Assembly (NCBI GenBank): GCA_016214895.1
Contig: JACRMR010000002.1
Coordinates: 1 to 64,000, forward strand
DNA: 64,000 nt
Direction of reading: 5' to 3'
Origin: Candidatus Zhuqueibacterota bacterium
GTDB taxonomy: Bacteria; Electryoneota; RPQS01
Both the position numbers and the translations under genes were made by a program. The notes under the pieces are model-generated. The model made no database searches, had not been told where the DNA came from, and was given only the letters and a program-made list of their open reading frames with translations. Below, piece by piece: positions 382 to 43,398 of this stretch (its first letter is position 1; every line of letters starts with the position of its first letter).

Positions 382-1545
382 ATGAGCCCGATTGGAATTG
401 ACGACAGTCTCCTGTCTGCTGTCTCTGTCGATAGCCTGCAACTCTACCTTGCGAGCAGACATTGGCGTGAGCGCGAGAGCATTGTGGGGAAGGCTTCTCT
501 CTGGACGAGGGACGACGGCGATGAAGAAGTCCTTGTACCGCAAAACAACCAGTTACGTGACTTTGTCCGGCGGATTTCTGATCTGCTGCAAATCCTCGAA
601 TATGATGAAGCTCGGCCTTCGTACCTGATCCTGAAGGACAGCGTCCTTGCCTGGTTTGACTGCTGGAGAATTCGTCGCGATGAGGAGGACACAAAGAACG
701 GGACAATCTCGTTTGAGGATGGAGCGCGACTCATCGCTGGTATGCGCGACTTGCTATCTGAGTCTACTAGGGGTTTTGTTCAGTCGTTGCAGCTGGACCC
801 GGAACCCTCCCGGCCGAAGTTACGGAGCATCCTTCGTCGATTCAGATTGGGTCAGACGGAAATGGGGAGCTTTGTCGCCACTTTGGTGACGAATGTCAAG
901 CAAGACTCGCCATCAGACCCAATATCTGGCCTCCAAGTGCCCGGTACTCCCGTTCAACGCTTGGTTTTGTACCGTCTTAATAAGACCATTTTTGCTGCCG
1001 TTCGTGCTGCGGAGACATCAAGAGTCGAGCAGTTCCGCGACTCGATTTTGGACGGGGTTACGCCTCGTGTCTGCCGCACACTGGCTGCAATCGGGGCGGA
1101 ACACGATTTGTCATCGTCCGTGGAGATTTCGTTTCAGTATTCTATGGGCCACGTGGTCACAACTCCTTTGGAAGCACGCGTTGCTATTTCTCCCGAGGCG
1201 CGAGAAATGTTGTCGGAGGCTGCGGAGTACTTGACTCATTCAGTCTTGCCCGCGACCGATGAGAAGTTTGCCGTTCGAGGACCAGTTGTTGTTCTCCAGC
1301 GTGATCCCAATGCATCGGAGGGAACCGTTTATGTGTTTTCAGACGTGGAAGGTAGAAATCGGAGAATCCGAGTTGAGCTGAAGGCCAGCGCTTACAGGCA
1401 AGCGATTCACGCGCATGAGCAAAATCTTGAGGTATCATGTCGCGGTACGCTTGTACGTGAAGGTCGTGCCTACCGAATAGACGATCCCAAATCGCTCACA
1501 ATTATGGATTCGGGAGACCAGATCGACCTCGAACTGCCCTCTTAG
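382..1545 (+). CDS. hypothetical protein (387 aa), no recognisable domain; a possible D...ExK nuclease-like motif near the C-terminus (SDVEG...VELK)
   Basis: Long ORF with AGGGGA ribosome-binding site 6 nt upstream. It sits in a lower-GC segment than the rest of the window. It is not shadowed by a better ORF. Confidence 0.6.
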   Translation: MSPIGIDDSLLSAVSVDSLQLYLASRHWRERESIVGKASLWTRDDGDEEVLVPQNNQLRDFVRRISDLLQILEYDEARPSYLILKDSVLAWFDCWRIRRDEEDTKNGTISFEDGARLIAGMRDLLSESTRGFVQSLQLDPEPSRPKLRSILRRFRLGQTEMGSFVATLVTNVKQDSPSDPISGLQVPGTPVQRLVLYRLNKTIFAAVRAAETSRVEQFRDSILDGVTPRVCRTLAAIGAEHDLSSSVEISFQYSMGHVVTTPLEARVAISPEAREMLSEAAEYLTHSVLPATDEKFAVRGPVVVLQRDPNASEGTVYVFSDVEGRNRRIRVELKASAYRQAIHAHEQNLEVSCRGTLVREGRAYRIDDPKSLTIMDSGDQIDLELPS

Positions 1546-1638: not shown

Positions 1639-2130
1639 GTGAAAGAGAATTTGGCTGTGATCATAGTCGGCAATCCAAACTCGGGTAAGAGTCATACATG
1701 GAATACACTATTCGGAGCAGTCGTAAAGACAGGCTCACAGTTACGTCGACTGTGCTTGACTGTGACAACGAATGTTGAGGTCTTCCTAGTCAGCGGATCG
1801 CCAGAAGAACGCGAGACTTACGTTGGAAAGATTATCGGCGAGAAAGCTCCTCGTATTGTCTTATGCTCAATGCAGTATCGCCAAGACGCAGTTCAGACCA
1901 TCCAGTATTTTGTAGAACACGACTATTTCCTATTTGTTCATTGGCTGAACCCTGGATTTCGAGATGTAATCAGATACGAAGATCGGTTGAATATGGTCTC
2001 GCTTATTCTTGCCGAAGAGTCGTTACTTGGTGTACGTAATGGCTCCACTGATTCGATTTCGCGAGTGCAGGAGATAAAGGACTTCATCTACGGGTGGGCG
2101 TTTAGTAGAGGTCTCGTTCGCACAACTTGA
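1639..2130 (+). CDS. small P-loop NTPase/kinase-like protein (163 aa)
   Basis: GTG start preceded by SD AGGAG (1626-1630). Walker A motif GNPNSGKS in IIVGNPNSGKSHTWNTLFG. It is 93 nt downstream of the 387-aa gene on the same strand, so probably co-transcribed. Confidence 0.65.
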   Translation: MKENLAVIIVGNPNSGKSHTWNTLFGAVVKTGSQLRRLCLTVTTNVEVFLVSGSPEERETYVGKIIGEKAPRIVLCSMQYRQDAVQTIQYFVEHDYFLFVHWLNPGFRDVIRYEDRLNMVSLILAEESLLGVRNGSTDSISRVQEIKDFIYGWAFSRGLVRTT

Positions 2131-2150
2131 CGTTTACCGCCGAGGTAGGT

Positions 2151-2175
2151 CCCCCGACCTGCCCGGAATCGGGGG
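2151..2175 (+). terminator. GC hairpin (CCCCCGA...TCGGGGG) 20 nt after the stop of the P-loop gene; possible terminator, weak U-tract
   Basis: 7-bp perfect inverted repeat read directly. The downstream sequence is T/C-rich rather than pure T. Confidence 0.3.
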
Positions 2176-2180
2176 TATTC

Positions 2181-2450
2181 CTCTTCCTCGCGGCGGCACT
2201 TGTCTCAAAGTGCCCCGCTCGGGCAAATGCGTGAACGTGGATGGGTTTCGCCGAGCGGGTCGGATGATGACATCCAACGCCGCGAAGTCGAATACGAATC
2301 ACGGTCGCGGCGGCACTTGTCTCCAAGTGCCCCGCTCGGGAAAGTGCGTGCACGTGGACGGGTTTCGCCGAGCGGGTCGGATGAAGGCATCCAACGCCGC
2401 GATTCTCCTTCCTCGCGGCGGCACATGTCTTCATGTGCCCCCTTCGGCAA
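2181..2450. repeat. tandem array (2.3 copies; periods 117 and 108 bp) of a structured repetitive element with two conserved hairpins
   Basis: Units begin at 2189, 2306 and 2414 with cgcggcggcac. Hairpin A: GGCACTTG-tctc-CAAGTGCC (2195-2214, 2312-2331, 2420-2439). Hairpin B: CCCGCTCGG-(~27 nt)-CCGAGCGGG (2214-2259, 2331-2376). Copy 3 carries T>A in the left arm and A>T in the right arm, preserving pairing. Confidence 0.75.
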
Positions 2451-2822
2451 CACCTGTGAGCGCGTATACGCCACGCCGAAGCCCGATGAAAATGCCTCTC
2501 GCATTTCCCTCCCGCGCGATAGCTTGATGTATGCCATCACCGGACAGCCGGGCAGTGCCTCTCGCTCCATTTCTGGTAACTCGTTTACGAATAATAGGTT
2601 ACGACCTTTTCCTTCTTTCCACTTGCTTATTGCCCAAAAATGTTGTATATTAGGCTCCAAATGAATTCTGAAATATTCATTAAGGGCACAATTAGTGATA
2701 TCAATCCTCCATTCAGACGTATTTATGATACTTGTTCGCCGACACTACGTATTCCGCCCTACTCCTTGTTTTTCCATCAGTAAACCAGTTCGTTTGGTCA
2801 TAAAATATTTTCATCGACGAGC

Positions 2823-5388: not shown

Positions 5389-5422
5389 TTGACAGCTTGC
5401 GTACACAACCTGAAGATGGAGT
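5389..5422 (+). promoter_or_regulatory. possible promoter (-35 TTGACA at 5389-5394) upstream of 5433
   Basis: Perfect -35 hexamer. The -10 is weak (GAAGAT). Confidence 0.3.
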
Positions 5423-5432
5423 GATATACCCC

Positions 5433-7160
5433 ATGCGAATGATGTATGTTTTGGCTCTTGCCCTTTGTATGAGTTGGACCCTGGCGATCGCGCTGCCGCC
5501 GGCAGTCCAGTGGGAGAAGCAGTACGGACCGGGAGCGGCTGGTGAATTCGGTCAAGCGGTGATCCAGACCGCTGACGGCGGTTATGCCGTCGCCGGTGTG
5601 ACGGACTTCCTCGATCTGTTCGGGGATTTCATGCTGCTCCGACTCGACGCCAACGGCGACACCCTCTGGACTCGCATCTATGTCGATTTGGCCGGTGAAC
5701 AGTCGCCGCGGGCGCTGTTCCAAAAACCGGATAACGGATTTGTGATCGGCGGCCAGCATAACGACTTCATGTCCGGCGACGCCGATTATCGTTTGATCGA
5801 GACCGATGCCGCCGGAAACCTCGTCGGTACGCATACCTACGCGGATCCCAATTACGACCTATGCGCCGACATGATCCCGACCGCTGATGGCGGCGTCATG
5901 TTCGTCGGCACGCGCGATGTGTCCGGTGTCATGCAGGCGAACGTGCAGAAGGTCGATAATGCGTGGAATCTCGAGTGGGATTCCACCTACGCCTTCTTTC
6001 CCACCGGGTCGAATGGTGCCGCCGATATTCGCCAAACCGGTGACGGGGGCTACGCATTGGCGGGAACCTTTCAGAACGTGGATTCGACGAAGATCTTCCT
6101 CGCGAAGATCAACGCACTCGGGTTTACGCAGTGGGCGGTTCTGCTCGATCCCTACGGGATGGAATGGGGATACTGCCTCGAATTGGCTGGAAGCGGGTTC
6201 GTCGTCGGCGGCATGGCCGACACCGGCGGCCCGGACCTCTATGACGCGTGTCTGATCGCGACCGATGGCGCCGGAACCCTGCTCTGGAGTGGTACTTACG
6301 GTGGAGCCGACGTTGATTGGGCCCGCGATCTCAGTGCCACGCCTGACGGCGGGTTGGTAGCGACCGGTTACAATGTCGAGGGCTTCGACGATTATACCTA
6401 CATCTTCAAGACGGATGGCAGCGGTATTGAATACTGGTCCGTACTCCTCGGTGCCGCATCGTCCGATGAGGGCCGATCCGTTCGTCCGACCGCTGACGGA
6501 GGCTACGTGGCGACCGGACTCCGTGCGCGTCCCGATGCCGAGGACCAGAACATCTACGTCGTGAAACTCATCGCTGACGTGCCGCTGCCGGTGGAACTGC
6601 TCGCCTTCGATGCTCGGATCGTCGGTGATGGCATCGAGCTCTCCTTCACCACGGCGGCTGAGACCAACACGGCCTATTTCGAGATTCTGCGATCCGCCGG
6701 CGCTGACTTCGCCGCGATCGCCAGACTCGAAGGCGCTGGGAATTCGACCACGGAGCGGCACTACTCTTTCGCCGATCAGCGCGTGAATCCGGGGACGACC
6801 TATCGCTATTTCCTCGCCGACATCGATGCCGACGGAAACCGCACTGAGCATCGCGATCGTATGCAGACCGTGACCTTCGGCGGAACCGCCGAGCTCCCCG
6901 CGGATTTCGCGCTGTCGGCATTTCCCAATCCGTTCAATCCCGGAACCACTGTCGAATTCGCCCTCCCGGAAGCGTTGCGAGCCACCGTGAAGGTGTTCGA
7001 TCCGGCGGGCAGACTCGTCCGCACACTGGCCGACAACGTGTTCCCCGCCGGCAGCCACCGCGTTGCTTTCGCGGCGGCCGGTCTGCCCAGCGGAATCTAT
7101 CTCGTCCGAGTCGAAGCCGGGGAATATTCCAAGATCGCGAAGCTCGTCCTGCTCAAGTAA
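5433..7160 (+). CDS. secreted repeat (beta-propeller-like, TADGGY repeats) protein with T9SS C-terminal sorting domain
   Basis: Signal peptide MRMMYVLALALCMSWTLAIA. Repeated TADGGY/TPDGG motifs. C-terminal ~80 aa (FPNPFNPGTTVEFALP...VKVFDPAGRLV...SGIYLVRVEAGEYSKIAKLVLLK) matches the T9SS type-A CTD pattern shared by five other proteins here. The ATG at 5433 is preferred to the TTG at 5397. Confidence 0.8.
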   Translation: MRMMYVLALALCMSWTLAIALPPAVQWEKQYGPGAAGEFGQAVIQTADGGYAVAGVTDFLDLFGDFMLLRLDANGDTLWTRIYVDLAGEQSPRALFQKPDNGFVIGGQHNDFMSGDADYRLIETDAAGNLVGTHTYADPNYDLCADMIPTADGGVMFVGTRDVSGVMQANVQKVDNAWNLEWDSTYAFFPTGSNGAADIRQTGDGGYALAGTFQNVDSTKIFLAKINALGFTQWAVLLDPYGMEWGYCLELAGSGFVVGGMADTGGPDLYDACLIATDGAGTLLWSGTYGGADVDWARDLSATPDGGLVATGYNVEGFDDYTYIFKTDGSGIEYWSVLLGAASSDEGRSVRPTADGGYVATGLRARPDAEDQNIYVVKLIADVPLPVELLAFDARIVGDGIELSFTTAAETNTAYFEILRSAGADFAAIARLEGAGNSTTERHYSFADQRVNPGTTYRYFLADIDADGNRTEHRDRMQTVTFGGTAELPADFALSAFPNPFNPGTTVEFALPEALRATVKVFDPAGRLVRTLADNVFPAGSHRVAFAAAGLPSGIYLVRVEAGEYSKIAKLVLLK

Positions 7161-11057: not shown

Positions 11058-12308
11058 ATGGCGGCTTACCAGAAACTGACTCCCCCGACCGCGGGCCATG
11101 CGATCACCACGGCCGGAAATCGCTTGAATGTCCCCGACGACCCGATCATTCCGTTCATTGAAGGCGACGGCACCGGCCGCGATATCTGGAAAGCGAGTCG
11201 CCGGGTGTTCGACGCCGCGGTACAGAAGGCGTACAACGGAAAACGCCGCGTCGAATGGTTTGAAGTCTATGCCGGCGAGAAGGCGCTGGGAGTCTATGGC
11301 GAAAACGTCTGGCTGCCGGACGATACGCTCACCGCGATCAAAGCCTATATCGTGGCGATCAAAGGCCCGCTCACGACTCCGGTCGGCGGGGGGATCCGGT
11401 CGCTGAATGTCGCTCTGCGGCAAGTGCTTGATCTGTATGCCTGCGTGCGGCCCGTGCGCTGGTTCACCGGCGTCCCGGCTCCCGTCAAGCATCCGGAAAA
11501 GCTGAACGTGATTATCTTCCGCGAGAATACGGAAGATGTCTATGCGGGAATCGAGTGGAAATCCGGCACGCCGGAATGCAAGAAGGTGCTCGACTTCCTG
11601 AATAACGAGATGGGGAAGAACATCCGCGCCGACAGCGGGATCGGCATCAAGCCGATCTCCAAGGAAGGCACATACCGCATCGTCCGCAAAGCGATCAAGT
11701 GGGCGATCGCCAAGAAGTTATCGTCGGTTACGCTGGTGCACAAGGGCAACATCATGAAGTTCACCGAAGGCGCCTTCCGCGACTGGGGCTACCAGTGCGC
11801 GCGCGAAGAATTCGGTGAGCAGACGGTCAGCGAGCAGGAATTGTGGGATGCGCACGGCGGCAAACTGCCGGCCGGAAAGGTGCTGATTAAAGATCGCATC
11901 GCCGATTCGATGTTCCAGCAGATTCTGCTGCGGCCCGACGAATACGAAGTGCTCTGTACGCCGAATCTGAACGGCGACTATCTGTCCGATGCCTGCGCCG
12001 CGCAGGTCGGCGGCTTGGGACTGGCGCCGGGCGCGAATATCTCCGATTTCTACGCGGTGTTCGAAGCCACGCACGGTACGGCGCCGAAGTACGCGGACCA
12101 GGACATGATTAATCCCGGCAGCGTGATCCTGTCGGGGGTCATGATGTTCGAGTATCTGGGCTGGCCGGAAGTCGCAGATGCCATCGTGCGCGGGGTGGAC
12201 GGCGCGATCAAGAACAAGCGCGTCACCTACGACCTGCACCGGCAAATGGAGGGCGCGACCAAGCTCAAGACCTCCGAGTTCGCCGACGAGATTATCAAGA
12301 ATCTGTAA
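11058..12308 (+). CDS. icd: NADP-dependent isocitrate dehydrogenase (416 aa, prokaryotic homodimeric type)
   Basis: Full-length similarity pattern to E. coli-type Icd: same length, N-terminal ...[15 protein letters not shown]..., Icd-type phosphorylation-loop region, C-terminal ...[11 protein letters not shown]. Confidence 0.95.
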
Positions 12309-12451
12309 GGCGCGGCTGACGGATTCCGGGCGGGTAACGCGCGTCGGCGAGGTGATGGTCGCGCACGCTGATCGCCGAGGAGGGACTGTGTCCCTGCCGG
12401 AATCAACCGCCCATCGCGTCCAGGTGACTTCCGCAATTCCGGCGGAGTATG

Positions 12452-12556
12452 GAGACCCCGCTCGGGGTTTGAAGTGAGACATCGGCCGTGCACTGGGGAG
12501 AATTCCCGACGGGGCACTTGGAGACAAGTGTCGCCAAGAGCATTCCGGGCGGATGA
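12452..12556 (-). repeat. dispersed copy, in inverted orientation, of the 2181-2450 repeat family, located in the icd 3' UTR
   Basis: The reverse complement gcgacacttgtctccaagtgccccgtcggga...gtgcacg...ccccgagcggggtc aligns with unit 2 (gcggcacttgtctccaagtgccccgctcggga...gtgcacg...ccgagcgggtc). The 20-nt core is identical and both hairpins are preserved. Confidence 0.65.
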
Positions 12557-12610
12557 TTGGTAGTGTGCGATTGAGACTTATGCGGTAACGCGCACGGCGG
12601 GAAAAGAAAA

Positions 12611-12647
12611 CCCCTCACGAGGTGAGGGGAGGCTGTTTTGTTTTTGA
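12611..12647 (+). terminator. rho-independent terminator of icd (CCCCTCAC-gag-GTGAGGGG + TGTTTTGTTTTTG)
   Basis: Perfect 8-bp GC stem followed by a U-rich tract. Confidence 0.75.
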
Positions 12648-12873
12648 TCGGTTGCGGACTCGTTGTCCCGCGCCTGATCGTCGTTTGTTTGCGCTACTTC
12701 GCAGACGGGAGATCTCTATCTCTCCGCTTTTTGTTACGCTGTTGCGGGCACTTTGGTTTCCGGTCCCCCGATAATTCACTTCACTCGGGTTCCTTACCTG
12801 TATAGACGTTGAAATGCTTTTCTTGTTGCAGGCTCCCCCACGTTTTTCGAGCCGCCACCGCGAGGACTTCATC

Positions 12874-15800
12874 ATGAATCGATGCCATTGGCTCCCCTTT
12901 GCACTACTCCTGTTGCTGCTCGTGAGCCTGCCGCTGGAACTGCTCGCCGGCCCCGGGAAGATTGCCGGTACCATTCTTGACGAAAACAAGGAGGGAGTGA
13001 TCGGCGCGGCCGTCATGATTGTGCAGACCAATCAGGGCAGCGTGGCGAATATTCAGGGCGACTATACCATCCTGAATGTCCAGCCCGGAAGTTACACGGT
13101 GCGGATCAGCTCCGTCGGCTACGGCACACAGGTGTTTAATGGCGTGACGGTCAGCGGCGACCTGACGACGACGTTGAACGCCACCCTGCGGGATGAGGCG
13201 ATTCAGGTCGAGGAGCAGGAGATCATCTATAAGGCGCCGACGGTCAAGGCCGACGTGCCGAACAAGGAGATCCGCTTTAATCAGGATGACTTCAAGTCGC
13301 GCGCCGTGACCAATATCAAGGATATGCTCACGAAGCAGCCGGGCTTCAAGGTTGACCAGGAAGGCGCGATTCACGTGCGCGGCGGTCGCGAACACGAGGT
13401 GCTGGTCGCCGTGGACGGCCAAGCCTACCGCGATCCGCTGGTCAACAGCTCGAAGCGACTGGTAAACTTCTCCGCGCTGAACGTGGAGGAAGTAGAAGTC
13501 CTGACCGGCGGCGACGCGCGCTACGGCGGTTTCCAGGCGGCGCTCATCAATGTGACCACACCGGAAGGCTCAATGAAGGACTACGCGGGGACCGCCGAGT
13601 GGCGAACCGACCGCGCGTTCCAGACCTACAGCTTCAACACCGACCAGTACGATTACTCCCTGTCGGGACCGGTGCCGTTTGCCGACAAATTGCTCGGCGC
13701 GAAGAAGCTGAGCTTCTTCGCCTCGGGCACGTCCAAGCTGACCAACACTTATACGCCATACAGCGTGCAGCGCGACGCCAACGATTACCTCGGCGTCGGC
13801 CTGGATGTCCCCGAACGGCAGTCCAATGACTACTCCGCGTTCCTCAAGCTGACCTACCGGCTGTCGGGAAACAAGAAGATGAACTTGTCCTACAACCGCG
13901 ATTACTCGCTGTGGGACATCTACCCGGACGGCGAAGCGGCTATCGGCGGCAATTACGGCTGGACCTATAAGTACAACGTCGCCAATCGCCCGTACGCGAA
14001 GAACACGCGGCAGTCCGTCAATCTGGCCTTCTCGCACAACATTTCGAAGAATACGTTCTACGAGATCACGGTCGGCAATTTCCGCACGACGACGCAAATC
14101 CGGCCGCGCGGCAAGAACCCGGACCAATTCACGCTCGCGGATGACGTCGAAGACCAGAGCGTGCTCGACGGAGCCACGGTCGGCGACACGGATAACAATG
14201 GCTTCCTCGACGGCTATATCGACGCCAACCGCAATGGACGCTATGATGGTACCGGTGAAGGTTACGAGGACATCAACCAGAACGGACAGTGGGACCGCGG
14301 CGAAGATTTCGTGGACCTGAACGGCAACGGACTTTACGATGCCGCGGAGCCGTGGATCGATCGCGCCAACCCGCAGGGGGTCAACAATCTCGGCGTGTTC
14401 GACGCGTGGGATCCGTTCGTTGACCTGAACGGGAACGGCCGCTGGGATCCGGCCGAACCGCAGCTGTCCGAGCAGGACTGGAACCAGAACGGCGCGTGGG
14501 ACGGCGAACGCTTCAACGATGCCAACGGCAACGGTCGCTATGACGGCGCCGGCGAGGGTTACGACGACAAGAACCGCAGCGGTGACATCGATCGCAAAGA
14601 TCTCTACGCCATGAGCCAGGACGACCCGGACGTTCCCGAACCTTACGTGGATGGCGACTACTGGCACGATACCGGAGAGCCGTTCATCGATGAGCCGAAC
14701 GCGTTCGGTTATTACAACGGACGCTGGGATGAGGGTGAGGTGTTCTTTGATCTCCCGTCGTCCTATAATGGCCCGTTCTCGCCGCGCTTCCAGGCGTCGT
14801 TGAACAACCGCTATGACGCGCCCAACGGAGCGTTTGACGAGTACGAATTGTGGACCTATCCGGCCGCGGAAGCTTATGGGTCCGATCCGCGCTTCCCCGT
14901 GCTATATACGTGGGAGGACGTGCGCTTCGGAATTCGCGAGTTCGGGGCGCAGTGGATCAACGCTCCTGTGGATCTCGTGACGGGGTACCCGGGGTACTTC
15001 CTGTATGATCCCGATCATTCCACCTGGACCAACGCGACGCTGGATGACCGGGATCGACCGATTGCGGATTTCCCCGATCGCGTGTGGAATTCAGCCGATG
15101 CGGGAACCGATTCCCGCCCCGGTCAGCTCGAAGCCTACGAAGACTACAACGGCAACGGCGTCGCGGATCGCTTCACGGACGGCTTCCTGAATCCGGGCTG
15201 GTGGGATGCCAACGCCTTCTGGCAGAACCGCGAAGCCACCGAGTGGGCCGGGAAGATGGACGTGACCAGCCAGGTCAACAAGTTCCACGAGTTGAAGTCG
15301 GGGATCGAGATGAAGTTCCGTGACCTGGACATGCAGTCGATCATCGGACCGGATCAGCCGTACGATAACCCCGATGTCCCGCTGCCGCCGGACGCGCCGT
15401 ATGCGGGCCGCGGAGCCAAGCGCGACTTCTATACCCAGCAGCCGACCGAAGGCTCGCTCTATTTTCAGGACAAGATGGAATTCGAGGGCATGATCGTGCG
15501 CGCGGGGCTGCGCAGCGACTTCATCGTACAATCCGATGAATTTCTGCAGGCCACGCAGGACCTGATCGATGCCGAACAGCCGGGCGCATTGCTGGCGAAA
15601 CGCGGCCGGTTCGTAGTCGCGCCCCGGCTCGGAATTTCGCACCCGATTTCCACCAAGTCCAAGCTGTATTTCAACTACGGCCACTACTATCAGGCGCCGT
15701 CGTTCGAGTACTTCTATCGCTCGGCAACCGTGAACATCGCGCCCAACACCGAAATCGGGAACCCGAATCTTGAGTACGAAAAGACGGTTTCCTACGAATT

Positions 15801-16578
15801 GGGCGTGAACACGGAGTTCACCGAGGATTGGGTGATCGACGTGGCCGGTTATTACCGTGACGTGTATAATCAGATCGGAACGGTGGAACAGCGCGTCGGA
15901 CCGGTCACGCTGAACCGCTACTTCAATCTCGGTTACGGTCGCGCCCGCGGGTTCGAATTTTCACTGTCGAAGAAGCTGTCCAATATGTGGGCACTCACGG
16001 CCAACTACGACTTCTCCTATGCTTACGGCAAGGAATCGGCGGCCACCGAGGGCCTCACGCAACGGCAGAACTCGCAGGTGGAAAACCGCGACGAGCATCC
16101 GCTGGGCTGGGATGAGACCCACCGCGTCTCGGCGTTCCTCACGTTGTTAATGGGCCAGAAGGACAAGAAGCATCTGTTCGGGCTGCGGCTGCCGTCCGAC
16201 TGGCTGGCGACGGCCGAGTATTCCTACGGCTCGGGCCTGCCCTACACACCGTCAACGTACACCACGGGCAAGAAGGCCAATCTGATTCTGGCCAACTCGG
16301 CCCGCTATCCGATGACGACCCGGACCGACCTGAAGGTTGACAAGTTCTGGACATTGAACCGGAATCTGAAGCTCACGACCGGCGTTGAAATCTATAATCT
16401 GTTCGACAAGAAGAACGTCCGCGAGCTGTACGCCGAAACGGGCAACGCCCACGACGCCTCGCATAAAGAGAATCAGGACGCGCGCGAAGACGACAATCTG
16501 GGCAAGGATGTCGATCACAATCCGCGCAACTACGGGTCGCCGCGCCAGATCATGCTGCACTTCCGGCTGGCCTTCTAA
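12874..16578 (+). CDS. SusC/RagA-like TonB-dependent outer-membrane receptor (CarboxypepD_reg + plug + barrel) with a ~200-aa insertion of thrombospondin-type-3-like calcium-binding repeats
   Basis: Signal peptide MNRCHWLPFALLLLLLVSLPLELLA. CarboxypepD_reg-like GKIAGTILDE...GSYTVRISSVGY. Plug motifs (IHVRGGREHEVLVAVDGQ, LTGGDARYGGFQAALINV). About nine DxNGNGxYD repeats. Terminal aromatic ...HFRLAF. Confidence 0.8.
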   Translation: MNRCHWLPFALLLLLLVSLPLELLAGPGKIAGTILDENKEGVIGAAVMIVQTNQGSVANIQGDYTILNVQPGSYTVRISSVGYGTQVFNGVTVSGDLTTTLNATLRDEAIQVEEQEIIYKAPTVKADVPNKEIRFNQDDFKSRAVTNIKDMLTKQPGFKVDQEGAIHVRGGREHEVLVAVDGQAYRDPLVNSSKRLVNFSALNVEEVEVLTGGDARYGGFQAALINVTTPEGSMKDYAGTAEWRTDRAFQTYSFNTDQYDYSLSGPVPFADKLLGAKKLSFFASGTSKLTNTYTPYSVQRDANDYLGVGLDVPERQSNDYSAFLKLTYRLSGNKKMNLSYNRDYSLWDIYPDGEAAIGGNYGWTYKYNVANRPYAKNTRQSVNLAFSHNISKNTFYEITVGNFRTTTQIRPRGKNPDQFTLADDVEDQSVLDGATVGDTDNNGFLDGYIDANRNGRYDGTGEGYEDINQNGQWDRGEDFVDLNGNGLYDAAEPWIDRANPQGVNNLGVFDAWDPFVDLNGNGRWDPAEPQLSEQDWNQNGAWDGERFNDANGNGRYDGAGEGYDDKNRSGDIDRKDLYAMSQDDPDVPEPYVDGDYWHDTGEPFIDEPNAFGYYNGRWDEGEVFFDLPSSYNGPFSPRFQASLNNRYDAPNGAFDEYELWTYPAAEAYGSDPRFPVLYTWEDVRFGIREFGAQWINAPVDLVTGYPGYFLYDPDHSTWTNATLDDRDRPIADFPDRVWNSADAGTDSRPGQLEAYEDYNGNGVADRFTDGFLNPGWWDANAFWQNREATEWAGKMDVTSQVNKFHELKSGIEMKFRDLDMQSIIGPDQPYDNPDVPLPPDAPYAGRGAKRDFYTQQPTEGSLYFQDKMEFEGMIVRAGLRSDFIVQSDEFLQATQDLIDAEQPGALLAKRGRFVVAPRLGISHPISTKSKLYFNYGHYYQAPSFEYFYRSATVNIAPNTEIGNPNLEYEKTVSYELGVNTEFTEDWVIDVAGYYRDVYNQIGTVEQRVGPVTLNRYFNLGYGRARGFEFSLSKKLSNMWALTANYDFSYAYGKESAATEGLTQRQNSQVENRDEHPLGWDETHRVSAFLTLLMGQKDKKHLFGLRLPSDWLATAEYSYGSGLPYTPSTYTTGKKANLILANSARYPMTTRTDLKVDKFWTLNRNLKLTTGVEIYNLFDKKNVRELYAETGNAHDASHKENQDAREDDNLGKDVDHNPRNYGSPRQIMLHFRLAF

Positions 16579-32332: not shown

Positions 32333-32465
32333 GTTTCAATCTCGATTCATGAGTAGGCTGTTGCCTCAGGAATCGGCAAACGATATGCCCAACTTCCGGC
32401 GCCATTCGTCCCGCCCTTCCGTTGCGATTCGTCAACCTGCAATCCGGGGCCGAGATTAGTAGCGA

Positions 32466-32596
32466 CCCCCCCCGGCCCCCCACAGGATGTGGGGGGAGGG
32501 CGGAGGCCGATTCCGGCGGGGTCCAGCGGATGCGCGAAGCCGCGCCCCCCCCGGCCCCCCACAGGATGTGGGGGGAGAGCGGAGGCCGATTCCGGC
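32466..32596. repeat. two tandem copies (period 79 bp) of a G/C-rich ~52-bp element containing the hairpin CCCCCCACAGG-a-TGTGGGGGG
   Basis: Copy 1 32466-32517, copy 2 32545-32596. Sequence ccccccccggccccccacaggatgtggggggag(g/a)gcggaggccgattccggc. Lies between the rtcB stop and the response-regulator start on the minus strand. Confidence 0.65.
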
Positions 32597-32635
32597 CGCG
32601 CGGGGACGCACGGCTCGGCGGGCGGGAATCGCGTG

Positions 32636-43322: not shown

Positions 43323-43398
<76 letters not shown>

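Follow-up and report, generated by a model that had tools for sequence, protein, structure and literature searches.

A tandem structured repeat in a KSB1/Calditrichaeota-like bacterium as a probable cluster of REP and REPIN elements

Repetitive extragenic palindromes (REPs) and the inverted REP doublets called REPINs are known, together with REP-associated tyrosine transposases (RAYTs), from Pseudomonas fluorescens SBW25 (Bertels & Rainey 2011; PMC3116915, PMC3337134), and REP clusters with the enzyme TnpA-REP are known from Escherichia coli (Ton-Hoang 2012; Messing 2012, PMC3479197). REPINs can be arranged in tandem, up to five in SBW25 and also in E. coli (PMC3337134), REP heterodimers whose partners have different stems are described, and REP spacers measure 20–100 bp with complementary ends or small stem-loops (PMC3733652). 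Here we analyse the first 64,000 nucleotides of the forward strand of contig JACRMR010000002.1 (assembly GCA_016214895.1, Candidatus Zhuqueibacterota bacterium; this whole stretch is referred to as the window), in which a tandem structured repeat array occupies positions 2137–2519. The array belongs to a dispersed REP/REPIN family and is not a structured RNA specific to this locus. The REP clusters of E. coli go by the name of bacterial interspersed mosaic elements (BIMEs), and we read the array with high confidence as a BIME-like cluster, in which a single REP of one type (B-type) is followed by three tandem REPINs of another (A-type); it very probably forms part of a REP-RAYT system in KSB1/Calditrichaeota-like bacteria. 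The family is new, whereas its kind is well known. The features of the array that look odd, namely tandem REPINs, heterodimers and structured spacers, are each normal for REPs (PMC3337134, PMC3733652).

Layout and folding of the array

Three units lie head to tail at window positions 2188–2519, the first two 98 nt long and 93% identical to each other, the third diverged and 107 nt long. They are preceded by the B-type REP, which begins 7 nt past the stop codon of the open-reading frame (ORF) at 1639–2130. The parts of the array are listed here with their strand and, for the first doublet, its minimum free energy (MFE).

2137–2169 (plus): single B-type REP, CCGCCGAG-GTAGGTC-cccc-GACCTGC-CCGGAAT
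2188–2285 (plus): REPIN-like doublet 1, 98 nt, MFE −56.3 kcal/mol, z = −4.76, four-way junction
2188–2222 (plus): A-type REP of doublet 1, hairpin at 2195–2214, followed by a 28-nt structured spacer
2251–2285 (minus): inverted REP of doublet 1, flanks as in the A-type REP, core TTGGATG-tcat-CATCCGA
2286–2304: linker of 19 nt between doublets 1 and 2
2305–2402 (plus): REPIN-like doublet 2, 98 nt, 93% identical to doublet 1
2305–2339 (plus): A-type REP of doublet 2, hairpin at 2312–2331, 8 bp, perfect
2368–2402 (minus): inverted REP of doublet 2
2403–2412: pyrimidine-rich linker of 10 nt, TTCTCCTTCC, resembling CCTCTTCC directly before doublet 1
2413–2519 (plus): REPIN-like doublet 3, 107 nt, diverged, four-way junction architecture retained with other stem sequences
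2413–2447 (plus): A-type REP of doublet 3, hairpin at 2420–2439, GGCACATG-tctt-CATGTGCC
about 2475–2519 (minus): degenerate inverted partner of doublet 3

A preliminary description of the locus had reported 2.3 tandem units with a period of ~117 bp between 2181 and 2450. That a tandem structured repeat is present is borne out by Tandem Repeats Finder (2188–2402, period 117, 1.8 copies, 92% matches, score 381), which also returns the same period, by a repeat search that pairs the 98-nt copies 2188–2285 and 2305–2402 (93% identity) and recovers the third as its first 38 nt at 2413–2450 (84%), by an 18-nt head motif that occurs four times in the window against 0.19 expected, and by the fold z-scores below. 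The extent had to be revised, however: there are three complete structural units, the third running past 2450 to 2519, and the related palindromic unit at 2137–2169, upstream of 2181, also belongs to the cluster. A terminator hairpin CCCCCGA/TCGGGGG had been considered just upstream of the array, but comparison with relatives led to the B-type REP reading instead. Two Logan assemblies with an identical PhzF (L040 and L041) have contigs that end 566 nt upstream of PhzF, at about window position 2308 inside unit 2, and a break of short-read contigs there is as expected because the array is a repeat.

Folded alone, each unit takes the same architecture, a closing stem (TCGCGGCG / CGCCGCGA) that encloses hairpin A, a longer middle hairpin and a small 3′ hairpin; three local hairpins and the closing stem thus form a four-way junction, where two hairpins per unit had been described. 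Unit MFEs run from −56 to −61 kcal/mol and z-scores against shuffles are −4.8, −4.7 and −2.6 on the plus strand for units 1, 2 and 3. The middle hairpin is CCGCTCGG...CCGAGCGG in units 1 and 2 and CTTCGGC...GCCGAAG in unit 3, whilst hairpin A is GGCACTT-gtctca-AAGTGCC (7 bp) in unit 1, GGCACTTG-tctc-CAAGTGCC in unit 2 and GGCACATG-tctt-CATGTGCC in unit 3. The arms first given for hairpin A in units 1 and 2 are right for unit 2 (GGCACTTG/CAAGTGCC) but not for unit 1, whose 3′ arm reads AAAGTGCC instead of CAAGTGCC and leaves a G·A mismatch as the top pair. The compensatory change reported between units is real, the T-A pair of GGCACTTG/CAAGTGCC in unit 2 being swapped to A-T in GGCACATG/CATGTGCC of unit 3. 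Units 1 and 2 differ at seven positions, every one of them in a loop, in the spacer or in the pair that closes a loop.

The A-type REP is a module of ~35 nt, with TCGCGGCG as its 5′ flank, an 18-nt palindrome core with a TCTN loop, and CCCGCTCGG as its 3′ flank, and as such it is a short imperfect palindrome (20–40 nt) with conserved, non-identical flanks, as REPs are. The family consensus is (T/C)CGCGGCG-GCA[C/G]NTG-TCTN-CAN[G/C]TGC-CCCGCTCGG, of which TCGCGGCG-GCACNTG-TCTN-CANGTGC-CCCGCTCGG is a narrower form. Read from the minus strand, units 1 and 2 have tCGCGGCG-TTGGATG-tcat/cctt-CATCCGA-CCCGCTCGG in their 3′ halves, with the flanks and length of the plus-strand module but a different core. 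Each window unit is a pair of modules in inverted orientation around a spacer of ~28 nt, that is, a heterodimeric REP doublet (REPIN) whose REP(+) and REP(−) have identical flanks. The four-way junction arises because the matching flanks pair, both in the closing stem and at the base of the middle hairpin, whilst each of the differing cores folds on itself. In doublets elsewhere the partner core is the near-inverse, for example GGCACGTG..CACGTGCC with GGCATGTG..CACATGCC, or the perfect inverse: the 97-nt doublets of the LacPavin-type loci L001, L003, L004, L020, L024, L030 and L032 fold as one long hairpin, the 99-nt doublet of L027 and the 78-nt doublet of L038 also fold as one hairpin, and near-perfect inverted doublets of 102–146 nt in L002, L006 and L010 again give one long hairpin. 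At 981–1220 of L010 (Calditrichaeota DeMMO2_36), an A-type REP and a GTAG-headed hairpin GTAGCGCCGCATGGATATGCGC make up a 97-nt tandem repeat with an inverted A-type REP at its end, a further tandem arrangement within the family.

Stable folding of this sort could also mark tandem genes for a structured non-coding RNA of ~100 nt, a cloverleaf or four-way junction serving, for instance, as a regulatory or protein-sponging small RNA. Such genes would suit fold z-scores of −4.7 to −6.5 on either strand and the preservation of one architecture in all three units despite the divergence of unit 3. However, just the 35-nt module is conserved, it is found alone, in doublets with unrelated spacers and in either orientation, the doublet is one long hairpin and not a junction in most genomes, and the module brackets a transposase gene (see below). 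There is no promoter-like site, and the Rfam comparison that the preliminary description had proposed gives no family match for the array: at the gathering threshold the whole window yields only a tRNA at 43323, and a permissive scan of 2000–2900 gives no better than 20.9 bits, from a plant miRNA model whose gathering score is 142. Although the fold resembles a cloverleaf, ARAGORN calls no tRNA-like gene in the array. RNA genes are on this evidence very unlikely.

Dispersal of the module and covariation in its stem

Beyond the ~35 nt of the module, the sequence varies from copy to copy, and only the module is conserved across the family. It occurs singly, in doublets with unrelated 20–90 nt spacers, in either orientation and mixed with other hairpin repeats, its companions in clusters being the B-type unit CCGCCGAG-(hairpin)-CCGGAAT, a C6..G6..G6 motif and GTAG-headed hairpins. 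A genome scan (one genome per species, pattern TCGCGGCGGCACNNGTCTNNNNGTGCC, stem positions partly free) matched 14 stretches on different contigs of three metagenome-assembled genomes (MAGs), split into 7, 6 and 1 contigs; the three are LacPavin_0920_SED4_MAG_61_11 (labelled ‘bacterium’), Calditrichaeota DeMMO2_36 and candidate division KSB1 metabat2.380. A metagenome scan added 25 further contigs. A phage origin of the module was dropped after a scan of viral contigs, which gave no match. The 288 kb of retrieved sequence, which is a biased sample, contains 56–63 module copies, and the window itself has four A-type and at least three B-type copies per 64 kb, all intergenic.

Stem covariation was assessed on 41 distinct 35-mers with an 8-bp stem, retrieved with a pattern that fixed just the flanks and the TCT of the loop and supplemented with window unit 3 and two variants. 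Flanks and stem are on average 87% conserved in this alignment. Standard pairs fill 98.2% of the stem cells, compared with a shuffle mean of 87.6% and 21–62% with a slid partner, none of 500 shuffles reaches the observed pairing or covariation score, and double-sided changes are seen in half of the stem pairs (4/8, 27 cells). Position 6 of the stem is G-C in 23 copies, U-A in 11 and A-U in 4, position 5 is C-G in 31, G-C in 8 and U-A in 1. The three window units alone covary weakly (two pairs with double-sided change, covariation term +1.45) because unit 3 is isostructural yet not column-alignable, so that the family-wide alignment is needed. The one compensatory pair first noticed at this locus is a single instance of a family-wide rule. 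The figures uphold the proposal made with it, that selection acts on a hairpin or a palindromic protein-binding site and not on coding; uncompensated stem variation in further copies would have spoken to the contrary, and what the 41 copies display is the opposite, variation that is compensated.

Translation of the array as a low-complexity repeat protein would accord with periods of 117 and 108 nt, both multiples of three, which looks like coincidence, and with the ORFs of 105–154 aa that span it (2200–2664 and 2210–2527 on the plus strand, 2205–2660 and 2102–2434 on the minus strand). Yet open frames on both strands are expected of GC-rich palindromes, the seven differences between units 1 and 2 are spread 3/3/1 over the codon phases, with no bias, and lie in loops or spacer, and elsewhere the module is intergenic and found in both orientations. 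None of these ORFs has an NCBIfam match, and the lone Pfam line, FluMu_N in ORF 2210–2527, reaches 21.2 bits against a cut-off of 25.8. We give a translated array almost no credence, and agree with the initial judgement that ORFs across it are unlikely to be real.

RAYT genes and genomic context

Screening all ORFs of the retrieved sequence for the motif HUH ... Y..NP gave two small motif-positive proteins adjoining module copies, at 763–1257 of L021 and 5127–5723 of L006. Both match Pfam Y1_Tnp and the NCBIfam equivalog NF047646 REP_Tyr_transpos (98.9 bits for L021 and 99.2 bits for L006, cut-off 80), and both miss the IS200 transposase model (26–30 bits, cut-off 55). The L021 RAYT is bracketed by the A-type module, with TCGCGGCGGCAGGTGTCTTCACCTGCCCCGC upstream and CCGGGCAGGTGAAGACACCTGCCGCGGCGA directly past its stop codon, and a protein search found four orthologues of it, to give the following set.

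L021 763–1257: RAYT from the motif screen
L042 10001–10489: RAYT orthologue, 73% identity
L045 1501–2001: RAYT orthologue
L046 218–535: RAYT orthologue
L047 777–1094: RAYT orthologue

All five have GGCAGGTG-TCTT-CACCTGCC upstream and its inverse downstream, within the flanks of the family. A cognate RAYT flanked by its own REPs is thus found in relatives, outside the window, and a RAYT bracketed by its own module is the defining REP-RAYT arrangement (PMC3337134, PMC3733652). Where neighbours are visible, the gene order is DUF1232 ... RAYT - PGK - TIM, a position conserved in several MAGs that fits a single-copy gene passed on vertically. The RAYT-PGK spacer measures 353 nt with extra hairpin repeats in L042 compared with 75 nt in L046, and this difference in REP content between orthologous spacers is at most an indirect sign of mobility. 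In two more distant RAYT paralogues, L043 (51%) and L044 (48%), the bracketing repeat is the B-type unit CCGCCGAGGCAGGTCC..GACCTGCCCGGAAT, a unit of the type found at window 2137–2169; the L006 RAYT has yet another B-like long inverted repeat around it.

By analogy with IS200/IS605 and RAYT enzymes, the A-type hairpin would be the type of site that a RAYT recognises: a single-copy HUH/Y1 RAYT would bind the module hairpin and its flanking bases in single-stranded DNA, and cut and rejoin alongside. If the folded hairpin is what is recognised, the stem would drift by compensatory change whilst flanks and loop stay fixed. The enzyme may mobilise or maintain the module copies, the tandem triplication may have come from local duplication or from recombination between REPINs, and the host may make use of the array at the 3′ end of the gene upstream. 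The near-perfect inverted ends of ~30 nt in some doublets (L002, L006, L010) could otherwise belong to miniature inverted-repeat transposable elements of a conventional DDE-type insertion sequence with terminal inverted repeats (TIRs), the RAYT link being incidental. However, family modules bracket the RAYT in all five orthologues and in the two paralogues, each ‘TIR’ is itself a REP-like hairpin whose flanks are asymmetric, the copies have no evident target-site duplications beside them, and a search that was not systematic turned up no DDE transposase with ends of this kind within the 288 kb that flank the copies, all of which makes a DDE-type origin highly improbable.

Several observations weigh against placing the array in a REP-RAYT system. 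A regex screen finds no RAYT gene in the window, and the core in the brackets of the RAYTs observed is the GGCAGGTG variant, which is neither of the window cores GGCACTTG and GGCACATG. The long REPIN hairpin is out of reach for the heterodimeric doublets of the window, which may be relics that no longer move. PhzF of the window is 100% identical to a protein of a candidate division KSB1 bacterium; beyond this genome the next homologue shares just 56% identity, and the collections searched have no close relative of the locus, which precludes an empty-site comparison, and mobility is something that we infer. Because several stem positions were fixed in the patterns for genome and metagenome retrieval, pairing is tested without bias at the free positions only. 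Lastly, an unpaired GTAG or CGTC motif at one end of the palindrome marks the two large REP superfamilies, and neither tag occurs on either strand here: the conserved flanks of the A-type are (T/C)CGCGGCG and CCCGCTCGG, those of the B-type CCGCCGAG and CCGGAAT; the GTAG-headed hairpins that adjoin some copies (L007, L010, L012, L013, L030) are a separate repeat. We therefore file the repeats as a REP/REPIN family outside both tagged superfamilies. It is conceivable, if rather doubtful, that the A and B modules constitute an undescribed, untagged REP superfamily co-evolving with a RAYT clade of KSB1/Calditrichaeota, in the Fibrobacteres–Chlorobi–Bacteroidetes (FCB) group, and that the window doublets are not active mobile elements but were retained by the host, as a 3′ untranslated region (UTR) stabiliser or as a boundary element by a defence island. 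Among top-ranked full-text results, no paper pairs KSB1/Calditrichaeota with RAYT/REPIN, which is no proof of absence.

The array is one of three mosaic repeat clusters in the window (2137–2519, about 12300–12650 and 32460–32625), all situated between ORFs. The features of the other two are as follows.

about 12300–12650: second mosaic cluster, in the spacer between ORFs 11058–12308 and 12814–16578
12371–12405 (plus): B-type REP in the second cluster
12511–12537 (minus): A-type REP copy TTGGCGACACTTGTCTCCAAGTGCCCC in the second, intergenic cluster
32460–32625 (minus): third mosaic cluster, same superfamily, between a 484-aa ORF and a response-regulator-like ORF
32587–32622: B-type REP in the third cluster, with a C6/G6/G8 hairpin motif

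The second cluster also holds further fragments ending in CCGGAAT and, on the minus strand at ~12610–12645, a clean terminator-like hairpin with a T-run, upstream of which there is no obvious minus-strand gene. In the third, a unit of ~79 nt composed of a B-type REP (CCGCCGAG..CCGGAAT) and CCCCCCACATCCTGTGGGGGGCCGGGGGGGG is tandemly duplicated, and the C6/G6/G8 motif recurs beside A-type REPs in many other loci, e.g. L003, L008, L015 and L037. In a crude, ORF-based count of copies with both neighbours called, the flanking ORFs are convergent in 11 cases, co-directional in 15 and divergent in 1, which agrees with the distribution that PMC3733652 reports for REPs, favouring sites downstream of genes and between convergent or co-directional ORFs. 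The same count places 19 copies ‘inside’ ORFs, most of them ORFs of 116–218 aa that span repeat clusters or leave the contig end; we treat these ORFs as spurious, and the L016 copy, in a 675-aa ORF running off the contig end, stands apart.

Compatible with a REP identity, and concerned with its present role, is the proposal that the host has adopted the array as the 3′ UTR of ORF 1639–2130, where it would block 3′–5′ exonucleases or attenuate read-through into PhzF. The cluster follows that ORF closely (7 nt from its stop codon) and is co-oriented with it, the junctions are very stable at −56 to −61 kcal/mol per unit, family copies lie mostly downstream of ORFs (26 of the 27 typed contexts are convergent or co-directional), and PMC3733652 and PMC3479197 report roles for REPs in stabilising mRNA and in termination. 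The units have no U-tails, however, copies stand in both orientations relative to neighbouring genes, and a promoter and terminator scan of 1900–2950 found no more sites than shuffles contain, its sole terminator-like call (2160–2177) being weak and at a level that shuffles also give; the scan thus lends no support to an attenuator. Adoption by the host as a 3′ UTR is a possibility, though an unlikely one. Between the array and the PhzF gene, the interval 2550–2850 has 38% GC compared with about 62% for the genome, and no sigma-70-like promoter was called in it.

Upstream of the array, ORF 382–1545 (plus strand, 387 aa) matches the PADLOC candidate defence family PDC-M02B over its full length (E = 3.7e-76), with no match in Pfam or NCBIfam, and it is followed by ORF 1639–2130 (plus strand, 163 aa), of which only a P-loop-like N-terminus could be recognised. 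Their GC content of 46–54%, against about 62% downstream, suggests that the two ORFs are an acquired defence islet; the partner ‘A’ gene of PDC-M02B may lie upstream, or may have been lost at the window start. As a tandem structured repeat that immediately follows, on the 3′ side, a pair of lower-GC genes, the first of them from a candidate defence family, the array could be the non-coding RNA part of that system, such as a type III antitoxin-like array. But the module adjoins unrelated genes in the other 39 pattern-retrieved loci, e.g. PGK/TIM, citrate synthase and type IX secretion system (T9SS) proteins, and two other clusters of the window lie far from the PDC-M02B block. The neighbouring ORFs include no toxin or Cas family above threshold, and the hallmark of a type III toxin-antitoxin or CRISPR locus, a locus-specific array beside a cognate toxin or cas gene, is not seen here. 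A part in the defence system is extremely improbable. Elsewhere in the window, ARAGORN calls a 93-nt tRNA-Val(GAC) at 5542–5634 (plus strand), whereas the Rfam gathering scan gives only the tRNA at 43323–43395; the call is probably a false positive, as it falls within ORF 5397–7160, which has a T9SS sorting domain.

Implications and comparison with known systems

In these GC-rich, uncultured lineages, the ‘structured repeats’ that lie between genes and seem to covary are REP/REPIN populations, which should be masked before hunts for novel RNAs or ORF calling and which also break short-read assemblies. The locus adds a REP-RAYT system from a poorly studied phylum, and its clean pairings of A-type and B-type cores with RAYTs could be of use for work on RAYT-hairpin specificity; the value of the finding is mainly one of annotation and scanning, and it opens no new biological question.

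The REPINs of SBW25 are similar in having a palindrome with conserved 5′ and 3′ flanks, two inverted REPs around a spacer, extragenic dispersal, tandem arrays and a RAYT of ~500 bp bracketed by the same REPs, and the conserved chromosomal position of the RAYT here (DUF1232..RAYT-PGK-TIM) fits vertical inheritance. They differ in sequence family and host lineage (KSB1/Calditrichaeota-like MAGs in the present case), and the window doublets, with their unrelated cores, form a four-way junction and not one long hairpin. Likeness to the BIMEs of E. coli lies in mosaic intergenic clusters where palindrome types alternate in orientation, occur in tandem and are mixed with short motifs, and TnpA-REP is a Y1/HUH enzyme recognising a hairpin and its flanking bases, as the RAYT here is predicted to do, whereas the GTAG head of E. 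coli REPs is absent from the window family. The REPs and TIRs of Di Nocera et al. 2013 (PMC3733652) share heterodimers with different stems, 20–100 bp spacers and convergent or co-directional location, and their TIR/‘TIRYT’ elements likewise include Y1 transposase genes between inverted repeats that occur as repeat families too; unlike the GTAG and CGTC superfamilies of the same work, the present family has neither tag, and its module, self-complementary like a REP, would by this token stand closer to the self-complementary ‘TIR’ families described there around some Y1 transposase genes. The subterminal hairpins of IS200/IS605 elements and of their non-autonomous derivatives, the palindrome-associated transposable elements (PATEs), are comparable in that imperfect hairpins in single-stranded DNA are the substrate of an HUH/Y1 enzyme, but the enzymes found here score as RAYTs (99 bits) and not as IS200 transposases (26–30 bits against 55), and their gene is apparently single-copy and syntenic, not multi-copy.

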